Source of the DNA: a virus | Lineage: Duplodnaviria > Heunggongvirae > Uroviricota > Caudoviricetes | Virus record (IMG/VR): IMGVR_UViG_2529292830_000010 | Reading direction: 5' to 3' (one strand) | DNA length: 10,016 nt | Shown here: one piece after another, positions 2,974 to 10,016 of the stretch | Position numbering within the stretch: position 1 is the first letter of the stretch | How the letters are laid out: each line of letters starts with the position of its first letter | Position numbers and translations under genes: made by a program | The notes under the pieces: generated by a model | Told to the model about the DNA's origin: nothing | The model's database searches: none | The model's input: the letters and a program-made list of their open reading frames with translations, nothing else

Positions 2974-3091
2974 GACTGCGGGTGCTTGAGGCTATCTGCC
3001 TCGGGCATGAACACCAACGGCAGATAGAGAAAAGCCCCAGGTAACATTACGCGTCCTGCAAGACGTTTAACATTAATCTGAGGCCATATCT

Positions 3092-3151
3092 ATGCGACAC
3101 ATAGAGATTAGCCTCTTACGGACCGAAAGGTCAAGGAGAAGCAGGCTATGA
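3092..3151 (+). CDS. mok-like upstream ORF (19 aa) whose stop overlaps the hok start
   Basis: ATG 3092 with GAGG 8 nt upstream. TGA at 3149-3151 overlaps the hok ATG at 3148-3150. Confidence 0.3.
   Translation: MRHIEISLLRTERSRRSRL
3105..3134 (-). promoter_or_regulatory. Candidate sok antisense promoter (minus strand: -35 TTGACC, 18-bp spacer, -10 TAATCT)
   Basis: Reverse complement of 3129-3134 and 3105-3110. The predicted antisense transcript would start near 3098 and cover the mok start and SD (3079-3094), as expected for Sok. Confidence 0.3.
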
Positions 3152-3303
3152 AGCAGCAAAAGGCGATGTTAATCGCCCTGATCGTCATCTGTTTAACCGT
3201 CATAGTGACGGCACTGGTAACGAGGAAAGACCTCTGCGAGGTACGAATCCGAACCGGCCAGACGGAGGTCGCTGTCTTCACAGTCTACGAACCTGAGGAG
3301 TAA
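3148..3303 (+). CDS. hokD: Hok family type I toxin (51 aa), HokD/RelF-like
   Basis: Translation MKQQKAMLIALIVICLTVIVTALVTRKDLCEVRIRTGQTEVAVFTVYEPEE is near-identical to my recollection of E. coli HokD (RelF). Single TM helix plus the conserved C-terminal Cys-containing periplasmic tail. Confidence 0.85.
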   Translation: MKQQKAMLIALIVICLTVIVTALVTRKDLCEVRIRTGQTEVAVFTVYEPEE

Positions 3304-4041: not shown

Positions 4042-5090
4042 GTGCGGGTATTACTTCGACCTGTTCTGGTACCGGAACTCGGGCTGGTGATCGTTAAGCC
4101 GGGCCGTGAATCCATGCCGGTATTCCACAATACCCGGTTACTGGTGGAGCCGGAACCGAAAAGCATGCGTAATCTGCCGTCCGGGGTCGTTCCTGCCGCT
4201 CGCCAGCCGCTGGTGGAAGACAAAACATTGCTGCCGTTTTTCAGTAACGCACGGGTGATTCGTGCTGCTGGTGGTGCTGGTGCATTGTCTGACTGGCTGT
4301 TGCGCCATATTAAATCCTGCCAGTGGCCACACGGCGATTATCATCACAGCGAAACCGTCATTCACCGTTATGGTACCGGCGCAATGGTGTTGTGCTGGCA
4401 CTGCGACAACCAGCTGCGTGACCAGACATCCGAATCACTCGAGCAACTTGCTCATCAAAACCTGTCAGCATGGATGATTGACGTCATCGGTCACGCAATA
4501 AGCGGTACGCAGGAGCGTGAATTATCTCTGGCTGAATTATCCTGGTGGGCGGTCCGCAATCAGGTGGCGGACGCGCTACCGGAAGCGGTATTACGTCGTT
4601 CGCTGGGGTTGCGTGCGGAAAAATCCGCTCAATGTACCGTGAAAGCGACATCGTACCGGGAGAGCAGACCGCCACCAGCATACTGAAACAGCGCACAAAA
4701 AATCTTGCGCCGCTGCCTCACGCCCACCAGCAACAGAACCCACCACAGGAAAAGACGGTGGTCAGCATTGCCGTTGATCCTGAGTCTCCGGAATCTTTTA
4801 TGAAACGACCTAAACGTCGCCGCTGGGTTAACGAGAAATACACACGCTGGGTGAAGACACAGCCGTGTGCGTGTTGTGGTAAGCCAGCCGACGATCCCCA
4901 TCACCTGATTGGTTATGGTCAGGGCGGAATGGGGACAAAATCTCACGATATTTTCACGCTACCGCTGTGTCGGGAGCATCACAACGAGCTTCATGCGGAT
5001 CCGCTGGCGTTCGAAGAAAAGCATGGTTCTCAGGTTGATTTAATTTTTCGTTTTCTTGATCACGCCTTTGCAACTGGCGTGCTTGGGTAA
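4042..5090 (+). pseudogene. DUF968 (YdfU-like) protein gene split by a frameshift at an A5 run (4619-4623); would encode about 349 aa if repaired
   Basis: Two overlapping ORFs (4042-4686 frame 1, 4545-5090 frame 0) that together match the DUF968 architecture. C-terminal part has the Cys/His-rich motif CACCGKP...HHLIGYG...CREHHNELH. Confidence 0.65.
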
Positions 5091-5473: not shown

Positions 5474-6295
5474 ATGAAACTGGAAGATTTACCGAAATAC
5501 TACTCCCCAAAATCCCCTGGCCTGACCGATGCATCGGCCTCAACGTCAAAAGATGCGCTGAGTATCACTGATGTGATGGCCGCGCAGGGCATGACACAGA
5601 ATCGGGCTGAGATGGGTTTTTCTGCGTTCCTGGGGAAAATGGGCATCAGTATGAATGACAGGGCGCGGGCAACAGAATTACTGGCAGATTATGCACTCAG
5701 TCGGTGCGATCGTGTGGCGGCGTTGAGAAAACTTCCGGCAGAAATAAAACCGGTAGTGATGCGCATTATGGCTTCGTACGCTTTTGAGGATTATGCCCGT
5801 AGCGCAGCGAGTAAAAAGCAGTGCCCTTGTTGCTATGGGGAAAAATTTATTGAAAGCGTAGTTTTTACAAACAAGGTCCAGTATCCGGATGGTAAGCCGC
5901 CGGTATGGGCAAAGTGTACGAAAGGTGTGTATTCGTCTTACTGGGAAGAATGGAAAAAAGTCAGGGAGGTGGTAAAAGTTGCCTGTCCGGAGTGTGGCGG
6001 AAAGGGTGAGGTTTCCACCGCCTGTAAGGATTGCCGTGGGCGTGGTGTCGCCATTCATCGTGAAGAGTCGGTAAAACGTGGTATGCCTGTTATCAGAGAC
6101 TGCCAGCGTTGTGGTGGTCGTGGCTATGAAAGACTACCATCAACGGAGGCATTTAATGCTATATGCGAGGTGACAAACCAGATAACACGCGCGTCATGGG
6201 AAAAAACAGTTAAGAAATTCTATGATGCGCTGGTGACCCGGTTTGATATTGAAGAAGCATGGGCTGAGCGGCAGTTAAAAAAGGTAACTAGGTAA
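5474..6295 (+). CDS. Late-gene antitermination protein Q (large QuuQ/YdfT-type, 273 aa) with DnaJ-like CxxCxGxG zinc-finger motifs
   Basis: Sits immediately upstream of a PR'-like promoter and terminator. Motifs CPECGGKG, CKDCRGRG and CQRCGGRG. Resembles my recollection of E. coli QuuQ (YdfT). Confidence 0.85.
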   Translation: MKLEDLPKYYSPKSPGLTDASASTSKDALSITDVMAAQGMTQNRAEMGFSAFLGKMGISMNDRARATELLADYALSRCDRVAALRKLPAEIKPVVMRIMASYAFEDYARSAASKKQCPCCYGEKFIESVVFTNKVQYPDGKPPVWAKCTKGVYSSYWEEWKKVREVVKVACPECGGKGEVSTACKDCRGRGVAIHREESVKRGMPVIRDCQRCGGRGYERLPSTEAFNAICEVTNQITRASWEKTVKKFYDALVTRFDIEEAWAERQLKKVTR

Positions 6296-6300
6296 CAAGG

Positions 6301-6328
6301 TTGATTTTTCCGGAATCTGTGGTAAATT
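6301..6328 (+). promoter_or_regulatory. Late promoter PR'-like (-35 TTGATT, 16-bp spacer, TG-extended -10 TAAATT); the Q-utilisation site is expected to overlap it
   Basis: Hexamers at 6301-6306 and 6323-6328 directly after the Q stop and upstream of a short-leader terminator. Confidence 0.5.
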
Positions 6329-6377
6329 CGTCATAACAATGGGCTTTTTATGCCTGACGTTAGAGGAGTTTCTACAA

Positions 6378-6400
6378 CCCGCCGCCGAGCGGGTTTTTTA
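6378..6400 (+). terminator. tR'-like rho-independent terminator
   Basis: Stem CCCGC (6378-6382) / GCGGG (6389-6393) followed by TTTTTTAT, about 50-60 nt downstream of the PR'-like promoter. Confidence 0.6.
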
Positions 6401-6438
6401 TTGCGGAATTAATTACGGACCGTTATTATTCTGCTCCC

Positions 6439-6514
6439 GGCCCTTTAGCTCAGTGGTGAGAGCGAGCGACTCATAATCGCCAGGTCGCTGGTTCAAATCC
6501 AGCAAGGGCCACCA
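6439..6514 (+). tRNA. tRNA-Ile (anticodon CAU, lysidine-type; ileX/ileZ-like), CCA encoded
   Basis: Cloverleaf folds by hand: acceptor GGCCCTT/AAGGGCC, T-arm GCTGG-TTCAAAT-CCAGC, anticodon loop CTCATAA. Near-identical to recalled E. coli ileX. Confidence 0.9.
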
Positions 6515-6614
6515 TCACAAACCGCCATTAGCTTATCAGGAAGAGCAGACGACACGATAACAGGGTTGTTGGTGCGGGGGCGGGTCCCCGATGGCGGTCC
6601 ATTATCGGTATTCA

Positions 6615-6688
6615 GCGTTGTTAGCTCAGCCGGACAGAGCAATTGCCTTCTAAGCAATCGGTCACTGGTTCGAATCCAGTACAGCGCG
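6615..6688 (+). tRNA. tRNA-Arg (anticodon UCU)
   Basis: Acceptor GCGTTGT/ACAGCGC, D-arm GCTC...GAGC, anticodon arm ATTGC-CTTCTAA-GCAAT, T-arm ACTGG-TTCGAAT-CCAGT. CCA not encoded. Confidence 0.85.
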
Positions 6689-6801
6689 CTATATTCATTC
6701 TTCCAGATTCCTTCCGGCAGAGCCTTATACTGAAATATACCTGGCTCAGGATATTGTTGAAAATATTTTATGTTTGTCAAAAATAAAAGTTCTGTTAAGT
6801 A

Positions 6802-7155
6802 TTGATTGAGTGTTTGTTATACGGTCTAATGGTTTTTTCAGCATTAAATATTTATCATTCATATGGTGTGGGTAGAGTGAATATTGATGAGGCGTCGGGG
6901 TGTTTCATCCTTAGGCAGCGTATTGATATAGTCAATGCAGGACGAGCAAAGGCCTTCAGCCGTTTGACAGTTTTGTTCTGTACTCCTGATCGTCTTTCGG
7001 GAAGAGACGTTATTATTCTGAATAGTGATGCTATACAGAGGGTTTGCGATGAGTTCATGGTTGCTAATTCAGAATTATTTGCTCTTGTTCAGGAGTACAA
7101 CAGAATAGCCAGGACCTGTGGTATGGATGAACTTCGGATTACTCATCTGGGGTAG
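6802..7155 (+). CDS. Hypothetical moron ORF (up to 117 aa; start uncertain among TTG 6802, ATG 6829, GTG 6865)
   Basis: Open frame in the AT-rich region downstream of the tRNAs. No convincing RBS and no family recognised. Confidence 0.3.
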   Translation: MIECLLYGLMVFSALNIYHSYGVGRVNIDEASGCFILRQRIDIVNAGRAKAFSRLTVLFCTPDRLSGRDVIILNSDAIQRVCDEFMVANSELFALVQEYNRIARTCGMDELRITHLG

Positions 7156-7548
7156 ATACATATCTGGATTATCACTTGTTACGGTAAAAAGTGATTGCTT
7201 ACTGTTTTTGTGAGTGGCATTGCAGCAGCCGGATAATGTCAGTGCTGGCTGACGGTGTACTGGTGGCGGGTGTGGTGGTTGTTGCTTTCCCGTTGCTGAA
7301 AAAGAAAACGCCAGACTGTTAGCCGGGTATCAGTTAGCGGGAGAAATTTTTAAATACTTCACAATTCAGGCGGTTGACTGTTGTCTGGTTTGCGGGGAGT
7401 TTGTTAAAAGAAACTGGCATGGTGAATCCCCCTGTGCGGAGGGGCAATCAGCGAGTAGGTATATGGGATAATCGCGGATTCAGGTGCTGGTACTGAATTC
7501 ACCGGGAGGCACCCGGCACCATGCAATGGCACATAGCGCCACTCTCCA

Positions 7549-7575
7549 GCCCCTCTCCGGAGGGGCTGTTTATAT
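7549..7575 (+). terminator. Rho-independent terminator (GC hairpin plus T-rich tail)
   Basis: Stem GCCCCTC (7549-7555) / GAGGGGC (7560-7566), loop TCCG, then TGTTTATATTGATTTTGT. Confidence 0.5.
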
Positions 7576-7602
7576 TGATTTTGTCAGATGTGAGTAAACT
7601 CC

Positions 7603-7938
7603 TTATGGACTTTGTTGTTTTAGTCCATAAGGACATATTTGCAGAGTGCAACGGTTATTAAAGCATTCATTCAATACGTTATCTGTATTTGTAGGACATT
7701 CCTGGCTGTTTTTGATTAAATTCCAGAATGTTTTATTGAATGGTACTACGTTGTAAATGGTTACAGGTAGCACTTTGTTATTGAGCATGATACCTGTGTG
7801 AGTCAGTGTAAATATACTTTCAGGAGGTAAGAAAGCATCCGATTGATACCAGATTATTAATTTTATTTTACTCCATATGACTGAAAAAGATATTCCGCAT
7901 GATGGCTGGATAACTGTATCAATCACAATCCACTTCAT
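7603..7938 (-). CDS. Hypothetical moron protein (111 aa), AT-rich, Cys-rich C-terminus
   Basis: Minus-strand ATG (7936-7938) with AGGAAG RBS. The stop is embedded in an 11-bp perfect inverted repeat (7601-7611 / 7622-7632). About 30% GC, unlike the flanking phage genes. Confidence 0.45.
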
Positions 7939-8183
7939 TTAGCTTCCTTGTTTATGCCTTGCTGGTGATGTTCTGAAAAGTATAAATGATATTTTTGAAT
8001 ATAAACCATAGAGCAGAATTATTTTTCTGATGTTGTTTATTGTTTATTTAAATGCAGGGTGGTTTATATCTCGTCTTGTAGTTTATCCATGCATATCTGC
8101 TTGATGATCAGGTTTCTATTTAAGGTATGGTTTTGTGTTTTTTCTGTGTTACATGTCTGGTATTTTAAAGAATTATTTTTCAG

Positions 8184-8387
8184 ATGGTGGAAAGAACCAT
8201 GGCATTTAAACACTATGATGTTGTCAGGGCGGCGCCGCCGTCAGATCTTGCGGAAAAGCTGACACATAAACTGAAAGAGGGCTGGCAGCCGTTTGGTAGT
8301 CCGGTGGCCATAACCCCTTATACCCTGATGCAGGCGATTGCAGCAGAAGGTGATGTGGTGGTCAGTGGTGCAACTGAGCCCGAGTGA
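8184..8387 (+). CDS. DUF1737-like small protein commonly found just upstream of lambdoid lysis genes (alternative start ATG 8199)
   Basis: ORF MVERTMAFKHYDVVRAAPPSDLAEKL... at the conserved position before the holin. GGTGG RBS fits the 8199 start. Confidence 0.65.
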   Translation: MVERTMAFKHYDVVRAAPPSDLAEKLTHKLKEGWQPFGSPVAITPYTLMQAIAAEGDVVVSGATEPE

Positions 8388-8630
8388 TACTACGTCATCG
8401 TACTGGCCCGGCATTCCAGGCCATAAAAGACAGTCTGGCAGTGGGACTAAATGTACTGACGCTGACGGATATTACCAAAAATGCAACGTATGGCGTTGAG
8501 ATAGAAAGTCTGGTGCTGGAGATAAATGCACCGGCATCATCATAAAAAGTGAGCCAGTCAAATGGAAGGTATCGTTAAACTCACCGGTAGTGTCAGTGGA
8601 TCGTCTGAGACGCTTGCATGAGTTATCAGA

Positions 8631-9328: not shown

Positions 9329-9649
9329 ATGAACGCAAAAATCAGATACGGCCTGTCGGCTGCCGTTCTGGCACTGATTGCCGTCGGTGCGCCCGCGCCT
9401 GATATTCTCGACCAGTTTCTGGATGAAAAAGAAGGTAACCACACAACGGCATACCGCGATGGGTCCGGCATCTGGACCATCTGTCGGGGTGCCACGATGG
9501 TGGATGGAAAACCCGTTTTTCCCGGTATGAAACTGTCGAAGGAAAAATGCGACCAGGTCAACGCCATTGAGCGTGATAAGGCGCTGGCATGGGTGGAGCG
9601 CAATATTAAAGTACTACTGACCGAACCACAAAAAGCGGGTATAGCGTAA
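9329..9649 (+). pseudogene. R: SAR endolysin (phage-21 R-like GH24 lysozyme) truncated after about 106 codons by IS insertion
   Basis: N-terminal Ala/Gly-rich SAR segment (YGLSAAVLALIAVGAPAP). Catalytic spacing E-x8-D-x5-T in EGNHTTAYRDGSGIWT. Reading frame ends at a stop formed at the IS boundary (GCG|TAAGCG), roughly 60 codons short of a full lysozyme. Confidence 0.8.
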
Positions 9650-10016
9650 GCGACTCGTCAGAACCGTATTGATATTTACTGAGAGCTCAGATCAACTTTC
9701 CAGGGCAACAGATCGCGTACCCGGTTTGCCGGCCAGTCCTGGATATGTTCAATGACGTAACGCAGCCACTTTTCTGGCTCCACATTGTTCAGACGGCATG
9801 TGCCGATCAGCGAGTACAACACCGCCGCATGTTCACCACCGCTGTCGGAACCCGCGAACATCCAGTTTTTCCGGCCTACGGCCACTCCCCGTAAGGCGTT
9901 CTCTGCGATGTTGTTGTCGATTTCCACCCAGCCATTACTGCAGTACACGTTCAGTGCATCCCACTGTTTCAGCAGGTATGCGAACGCTTTTGCCGTATCT
10001 GAGTGACGCGACAGTG
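9646..10016 (-). mobile_element. IS66-family insertion sequence, one end only (element continues beyond window end)
   Basis: Terminus begins GTAAGCG at 9646 (characteristic IS66-family end) and the element encodes an IS66-type transposase C-terminus on the minus strand. Confidence 0.8.
9676..10016 (-). CDS. IS66-family transposase, C-terminal portion (N-terminus outside window)
   Basis: Minus-strand frame open to the window edge. Translation ...HSDTAKAFAYLLKQWDALNVYCSNGWVEIDNNIAENALRGVAVGRKNWMFAGSDSGGEHAAVLYSLIGTCRLNNVEPEKWLRYVIEHIQDWPANRVRDLLPWKVDLSSQ matches the conserved C-terminal region of IS66 transposases. Confidence 0.85.
   Translation of the reverse strand, partial: LSRHSDTAKAFAYLLKQWDALNVYCSNGWVEIDNNIAENALRGVAVGRKNWMFAGSDSGGEHAAVLYSLIGTCRLNNVEPEKWLRYVIEHIQDWPANRVRDLLPWKVDLSSQ

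Follow-up and report, generated by a model that had tools for sequence, protein, structure and literature searches.

A close relative of the locus analysed here lies in the potB prophage of the uropathogenic E. coli strain CFT073, where Hryckowian et al. (2014, mBio; PMC4045071) named iraL as the gene for an anti-adaptor of RssB. IraL prevents RssB-mediated delivery of RpoS to ClpXP, and it raises both the level and the half-life of RpoS in log phase; for the CFT073 protein, RssB binding and stabilisation of RpoS have both been shown (PMC4045071). The gene is active from its native promoter, delimited as the region from -100 to +33, and its mRNA begins 5'-ACATCACCAGCAAGGCATAAACAAGGAA; in JJ1886, iraL has a -35 variant of unknown activity (PMC4045071). 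A second member of the same family (NF007393) is IraM of K-12, which is encoded next to the e14 prophage. The two anti-adaptors differ in that IraM touches both domains of RssB whereas IraL touches the N-terminal one only, and in the conditions under which they are active (PMC4045071).

Stx2a phages such as LC567834 share a backbone order in which the cargo, stx2AB, is followed by STnc100, an iraM-like gene and nanS-p. STnc100 is a prophage small RNA (sRNA) related to PasD (Zhu, Shabalina, & Storz, 2026, preprint). One copy lies 75 nt downstream of stx2B, and the RNA has been detected by RT-qPCR in vesicles of STEC (PMC12370729). The tci genes provide a further point of comparison. In phage P1 they form the series tciA-tciB-tciC beside tRNA genes, and in the lambdoid phage JLK-2012 a tciA-tciB pair occupies the slot of interest here, between the tRNAs and nanS-p. 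The functions of these proteins are annotated by homology only, and a literature search for tciA, tciB and DUF3927 returned almost nothing but unrelated papers on Trypanosoma.

The window, that is, the whole stretch of 10,016 nucleotides that was analysed (IMG/VR record IMGVR_UViG_2529292830_000010), is a lambdoid prophage of E. coli, the principal features of which are collected in Table 1. The segment under study, positions 6700-8180, recurs at 100% identity in several ETEC chromosomes, for example that of ATCC 43886, and at least 80% of it is carried by 863 of 5,426 complete E. coli genomes. It had been described in the earlier note as AT-rich DNA preceded by Q, tR' and tRNA genes and containing a plus-strand ORF (6802-7155) and a convergent minus-strand ORF (7603-7938). 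All of these elements were located, and the GC content is indeed 0.32-0.45 across most of the segment as against about 0.5 in its flanks. The tR'-like terminator can be taken as the marker for the start of the late operon leader. Downstream of the segment lie a DUF1737 fragment, a P21-type holin gene, a YdfR/DUF1327 gene and a lysozyme gene. [quoted passage not shown] The two prophages differ in that CFT073 has three tRNA genes rather than two, and an IS200 element after Q that is absent from the window, where an IS66-family insertion in the lysozyme gene is found instead. The segment is therefore very probably the place where a lambdoid prophage of the CFT073 potB type carries its variable cargo; it is made up of two cassettes and shared backbone, and its main parts are already known.

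Table 1. Features located in the window and the evidence for each; the last three rows give the points at which homology with related phages is interrupted.
Feature	Position	Strand	Evidence or remark
Q antiterminator gene	5474-6295		PF03589, 6.3e-55
tR'-like intrinsic terminator downstream of Q	6376-6395	+	Terminator scan: 7-pair stem, T tail
tRNA, CAT anticodon, ileZ-type	6439-6514	+	ARAGORN; Rfam tRNA 72.5 bits; NCBI pipeline call tRNA-Ile
tRNA-Arg(TCT)	6615-6689	+	ARAGORN, Rfam; variable cassette begins at its 3' end
Unannotated gene, 92-aa acidic two-helix hairpin protein, phrog_2873 family (start most likely at 6877)	6877-7155	+	Profile match, dN/dS, homologues
DUF3927/TciB-like 43-aa peptide, one hydrophobic helix	7191-7322	+	PF13064, 1.7e-27
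STnc100 sRNA gene (Rfam RF02076), own intrinsic terminator included	7388-7577	+	cmscan
Perfect hairpin spanning the iraL stop codon	7600-7633	-	Arms 7600-7611 and 7622-7633, 12 nt
iraL, IraM-family RssB anti-adaptor, 111 aa	7603-7938	-	NF007393 over residues 1-110, 162 bits (cutoff 121)
iraL leader (33 nt), transcription start 7971, predicted sigma-70 promoter (-10 TATACT)	7939-8010	-	Published 5'-RACE sequence located
nanS-p esterase gene remnants, right-hand backbone flank	8184-8545	+	DUF1737 N-terminus 8184-8387, C-terminal fragment 8384-8545
Stx2a phage LC567834	Homology ends 6699, resumes 7359
Phage 640R1	Homology ends 6656, resumes 7359
Phage mEp460_ev081	Homology ends 7525

The convergent minus-strand ORF can be identified, from its sequence, as IraL, the anti-adaptor characterised experimentally in CFT073. 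The predicted protein is 100% identical to that of CFT073 (WP_000871291.1, C_RS06710), and the same accession is annotated in ATCC 43886. Identity to K-12 IraM is 62% over 107 residues, and the protein also matches PDB entry 8twd, an IraM chain; the K-12 gene is set in another genomic context and differs in its 3' hairpin, and the C-terminus of its product is four residues shorter. The 5' end determined by RACE in CFT073 is present on the minus strand with its first base at 7971, which would give the leader listed in Table 1. The region from -100 to +33 differs from that of CFT073 by four substitutions, at -30, -1, +29 and +31, the first of which adjoins the predicted -35 element. Hexamers of the form TGTTTA are repeated upstream of iraL; a reading of these as a PhoP box was set aside, since reports describe log-phase expression of IraL driven by a sigma-70 promoter.

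Between the two ORFs the earlier note had described a stretch, 7156-7600, without an ORF of more than 60 aa. No ORF of at least 60 aa is present there, but the interval is not empty, as it holds the 43-aa DUF3927 gene and the 190-nt gene for STnc100. The latter scores 132.4 bits in cmscan (gathering score 47; E = 1.1e-29), covers model positions 1-206 of 206 and has a predicted fold of -74.6 kcal/mol (z = -2.3). It matches the Rfam family over its full length, terminator included, without structural difference, and it has the prophage late-region site, often with several copies, that is typical of the family. The published qPCR primers for STnc_100 (PMC12370729) match the window exactly at 7418 and 7491. 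A strong terminator that had been noted at 7549-7575 proves to be that of STnc100 itself, with a stem at 7547-7568 of nine pairs, seven of them G-C, followed by a T-rich tail (-20.3 kcal/mol, z = -4.3). The NCBI pipeline places a minus-strand pseudogene at 7407-7532, entirely within STnc100; this was rejected as a gene and is probably an artefact of protein homology. In relatives, copies of STnc100 terminate other cargo cassettes: STEC1585 has four such copies, 640R1 has two and mEp460 has one.

Comparison with related phages placed the breakpoints of homology at 6656 or 6699, at 7359 and at 7525. In LC567834, homology spans 6399-6699 and 7359-8418 of the window, and stx2AB lies between the matching points, the published spacing of 75 nt between stx2B and STnc100 being reproduced in this phage. 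Flank identity to the window is 88% over the tRNAs and 71% from STnc100 through iraM to DUF1737, and in the Stx2a phage an iraM-like gene of 73% identity comes after stx2B and STnc100. As judged from these alignments, only 6700-7358 is allelic to stx2AB, with STnc100 and iraL belonging to shared flanking DNA. Stx2a phages thus differ from the window in carrying stx2AB where the window has the genes for the 92-aa and DUF3927 proteins, and in having nanS-p intact rather than in fragments. The proposal that the whole segment stands at the position of stx accordingly holds in part: it is a variable cargo site with the tRNA cluster on one side and the lysis cassette on the other, and 6700-7358 exactly replaces stx2AB, but iraL is outside the stx slot, its iraM-like counterpart being downstream of stx2B in Stx2a phages. 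The slot is therefore narrower than had been assumed, at about 660 bp here. In the relatives examined, stx2 has conserved neighbours in STnc100 and a gene of the iraM family, and thus a regulator of RpoS stability is encoded in the prophage region adjoining the toxin slot. Of the three breakpoint positions, two lie at or within STnc100; the sRNA gene may therefore act as shared homology for the exchange of cassettes, as the alignments suggest.

What the 660-bp cassette encodes bears on the suggestion that the segment is novel toxin, defence or anti-defence cargo, highly expressed from a Q-antiterminated late transcript. In its favour, the position is allelic to stx2AB, the 92-aa protein is without an assigned function, resistance to tellurite or colicins is the phenotype given to TerB/Tci modules in homology-based annotation, and a small hydrophobic peptide such as the DUF3927 protein could act on the membrane. 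The latter is a strong match to PF13064 (95.6 bits against a gathering score of 25) and to the 'TciB-like' family phrog_1470 (7.8e-13). It consists of a single strongly hydrophobic stretch followed by KKK, has a GRAVY of 0.95 and is annotated by the NCBI pipeline as WP_000562553.1. Against the suggestion, PADLOC returned no match for any of five ORFs at E values up to 0.1, and no defence or toxin model matched the segment. The largest and best-conserved element, iraL, lies on the opposite strand, has a promoter of its own and encodes a regulator of the host stress response; it is not a late gene driven by Q. STnc100, for its part, is a known sRNA. The earlier note had recognised none of the products; IraL, Pfam DUF3927 and Rfam STnc100 have now been identified, leaving the 92-aa protein as the one product without an assigned function. 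Its AlphaFold2 model (pLDDT 88, from an alignment of nine sequences) shows two long helices (residues 3-33 and 50-81) packed antiparallel, with a conserved TPDR motif in the loop that joins them. Foldseek comparison of this model with PDB and BFVD found generic helical hairpins only, the best E values being 0.14 and 0.23, respectively, and no significant match was obtained with Pfam or NCBIfam, or with PDB sequences using either the single protein or a profile. Candidate matches to RHIM (E = 0.09) and to GapR/UPF0335 (E = 0.06, not significant) were rejected. Novel cargo of this kind is an improbable account of the segment as a whole; it is a weak possibility for the 660-bp cassette and is unsupported for iraL and STnc100. 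Neither ORF encodes a known structural or housekeeping protein and neither looks like a degraded remnant, yet the description as unknown cargo largely falls away, and the proper label for the locus is iraL, STnc100 and tciB-like.

The erosion of this prophage also has to be weighed. The copy is defective: the IS66-family element splits the lysozyme gene, and a frameshift disrupts the DUF968 gene. All that is left of nanS-p is two fragments (PF08410, 4.2e-17), which align with positions 1-58 and 582-632 of the 634 in phrog_143, the N-terminal piece being labelled a partial pseudogene by the NCBI pipeline. Expression of late genes driven by Q may no longer matter in such a copy. Together with the four substitutions in the iraL promoter relative to CFT073, and with the lack of tciA relative to two other loci described below, these lesions could be taken to indicate that the whole region is inert debris of a cryptic prophage, kept by linkage alone, so that matches to known elements would imply no activity in this strain. 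However, the IraL protein is 100% identical to that of CFT073, which is functional and expressed from its native promoter in an equally eroded context (PMC4045071), STnc100 matches its full model with the terminator intact, and the 92-aa gene is under purifying selection. A region that is wholly inert is thus quite improbable, and the reading of the segment as a variable cargo region of the CFT073 potB type is preferred.

The gene for the 92-aa protein is absent from the NCBI pipeline annotation of ATCC 43886, CFT073 and STEC1585 and from the depositors' annotation of phage mEp460_ev081, which was the single record matched by tblastn in a phage collection. The plus-strand ORF, delimited mechanically, begins with TTG at 6802, and it matches phrog_2873 over positions 1-108 of 108 (3.5e-70, 234 bits). 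From the homologues and the distribution of substitutions over codon positions, the gene most likely begins at GTG 6877, which is preceded by a weak Shine-Dalgarno sequence, giving a product with a pI of 5.7; the upstream starts TTG 6802 and ATG 6829 were rejected on these same grounds. An exhaustive profile search yielded 21 representatives, several of which are 91-95 aa in length and, when aligned, cover positions 26-117 of the ORF as delimited mechanically, and full-length homologues of this size, down to 32-40% identity, are found in Citrobacter and other contigs. When the gene is compared with a copy of 72% identity, the part from codon 26 onwards shows a dN/dS of 0.27 and 24, 23 and 43 changes at the first, second and third codon positions, whereas codons 1-25 show a dN/dS of 0.6 and 11, 10 and 12 changes, without an excess at the third position. 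Two further comparisons gave dN/dS values of 0.25 and 0.24 for the gene, and the third-position excess recurs in all three. The reading frame is intact in all 80 near-identical viral contigs, with six synonymous and five non-synonymous polymorphic sites; DUF3927 accompanies it in 78 of the 80 and iraL in 57. It is highly improbable that the ORF is a chance frame or a decayed remnant, which would explain its omission by the pipeline in line with its absence from four annotations, its TTG or GTG start with a weak ribosome-binding site, the lack of coding constraint over its first 25 codons and a few truncated or frameshifted variants (P0008, P0013 and P0017), because the dN/dS of 0.25-0.27 and doubled third-position changes from codon 26 onwards in independent comparisons, the full-length divergent homologues, the approximately 950 member sequences in intact clusters and the confident structural model all speak for a protein. 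The pattern of substitution thus argues that this is a real gene under purifying selection which has been overlooked by annotation, and to which no family library assigns a function.

The only functional lead for the hairpin protein is its synteny with the Tci genes. A scan of genome contigs for the 92-aa family yielded only three loci. Two relatives, L012 in a prophage of Citrobacter braakii and L011 on an E. coli-like contig, have the hairpin gene followed in turn by genes for a TerB-domain protein of 141 aa, a DUF3927-like peptide and the holin, and the TerB-domain protein is 87% identical to TciA of P1. In the window, tciA is absent: just 35 nt separate the 92-aa and DUF3927 genes, and there is no TerB ORF. 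The window resembles the Tci modules of P1 and JLK-2012 in that its DUF3927 peptide matches the TciB-like PHROG, and differs from them in the lack of tciA; P1 and JLK-2012, for their part, have no annotated gene in the position upstream of tciA that the hairpin gene takes in L011 and L012. STEC1585 has a 56%-identical hairpin gene after an AraC-type regulator, and the tciB frame is not kept there. Given the absence of tciA here and the loss of the tciB frame in STEC1585, the hairpin gene and tciB are not obligate partners, and the two could be a decaying remnant. From gene order, the arrangement in the window looks like a reduced form, without tciA, of a three-gene module hairpin-TciA(TerB)-TciB upstream of holin.

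A broader proposal is that the 92-aa protein, together with the rest of phrog_2873 and its relatives of 91-95 aa, is the first member of a conserved module of this composition, lying directly upstream of holin in enterobacterial prophages and having a real membrane-directed function. This is advanced as a doubtful possibility, and it is with low confidence that the hairpin protein and the TciB-like peptide are regarded as a late-expressed, membrane-associated accessory module. If the proposal is true, candidate roles for the module would be the control of lysis timing, superinfection exclusion, or resistance to tellurite, colicins or phages, and the hairpin-Tci module would offer the stx slot a functional substitute for the toxin genes. 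A more modest new point is that a small gene under purifying selection and linked to Tci genes is unannotated in the four genomes inspected, though the segment is present in some 860 complete genomes of E. coli. The gene merits addition to the annotation.

The arrangement of these elements suggests how the locus might work. In the first cassette (6700-7358), occupying the slot filled by stx2AB in Stx2a phages, the hairpin and TciB-like genes lie on the late strand, where Q-antiterminated transcription from PR' would reach them, perhaps with weak transcription of their own as well. The second cassette consists of STnc100, the terminator of which is predicted to end the plus-strand unit in the lysogen. 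The convergent iraL has its own sigma-70 promoter, from which it would be transcribed in the lysogen independently of Q, with tR' and the STnc100 terminator probably insulating it from antisense transcription. Upon induction, Q-modified polymerase would be expected to read through both and to continue antisense across iraL.

A final observation concerns the inverted repeat at the stop codon of iraL. The repeat is perfect, as had been reported, with arms of 12 rather than 11 nt. This GC-rich hairpin was considered as the intrinsic terminator of iraL and rejected, the minus strand being without a U-tract. It is particular to the iraL allele of the window, the 3' ends of K-12 iraM and of the iraM gene of the Stx2a phage being without it, and its predicted folding energy is -17.5 kcal/mol (z = -6.0).

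The small RNA STnc100 (Rfam RF02076; plus strand in the window) recurs in related prophages in association with different neighbours. The STEC1585 prophage (L008 3575-6256) carries four copies, three of them in near-tandem arrangement, and phage 640R1 carries two (L001 2066-2723), and in both a different cargo gene precedes each copy. In this arrangement, STnc100 resembles a reusable 3' cassette end. Some annotations of a 'hypothetical protein' or pseudogene lie wholly within STnc100 copies, on the minus strand at window 7407-7532 and at L001 2466-2678, and these protein calls are probably annotation artefacts that have been spread by protein homology.

In STEC prophages, the homologue of the hairpin protein (the 92-aa product of the window gene at 6877-7155) has a regulatory neighbour, since a 241-aa AraC-type helix-turn-helix regulator is encoded 21 nt upstream of it (L008 4164-5261; L006, another STEC prophage locus, 164-1261). 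A prophage AraC-like regulator, AppY, is the subject of a published study that also mentions IraM (PMC10057817).

Upstream of the cargo, window 6296-6402 forms a short leader that runs from the presumed PR' to the tR' terminator, the position from which the StxS sRNA arises in Stx phages. A scan of this leader against Rfam returned a single match, to Trp_leader, that is weak and ascribed to chance (E = 0.22). The two tRNA genes that follow are approximately 100 bp apart, and whereas CFT073 and Stx2a phages have a third tRNA gene (Arg) between the two, the window does not. The spacer (6520-6610) is thus probably the site of a lost or decayed tRNA gene, as judged from this comparison.

Several protein-coding genes of the window's prophage are broken. 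The lysozyme reading frame (region 9329-9948) encodes only 106 aa, with a stop at 9649, and the gene is 534 bp and intact in ATCC 43886 and CFT073 by comparison of annotations. Because this frame stops early and the C-terminus of an IS66-family transposase adjoins it, the lysis cassette is interrupted in this prophage copy. The DUF968 gene (4042-5090) is divided between a reading frame at 4042-4686 and a second one, overlapping the first, at 4545-5090, and its ATCC 43886 equivalent is labelled as frameshifted by NCBI's pipeline. All that remains of nanS-p (9-O-acetyl sialic acid esterase; 8184-8545) is a DUF1737 segment from the N-terminus and some 50 aa from the C-terminus, corresponding to positions 1-58 and 582-632 of the 634 in phrog_143, and the survival of these two ends implies that about 1.5 kb has been deleted from the interior of the gene.

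Finally, on the strength of its RNA and protein family matches, window 2980-3303 is a type I toxin-antitoxin locus, hok/sok.

Coordinates of toxin-antitoxin and transposase features in the window
Feature	Position	Strand	Match
sok RNA	2980-3150		Rfam RF01794, 100.8 bits
HokD	3148-3303		PF01848
IS66-family transposase C-terminus	9676-9948	minus
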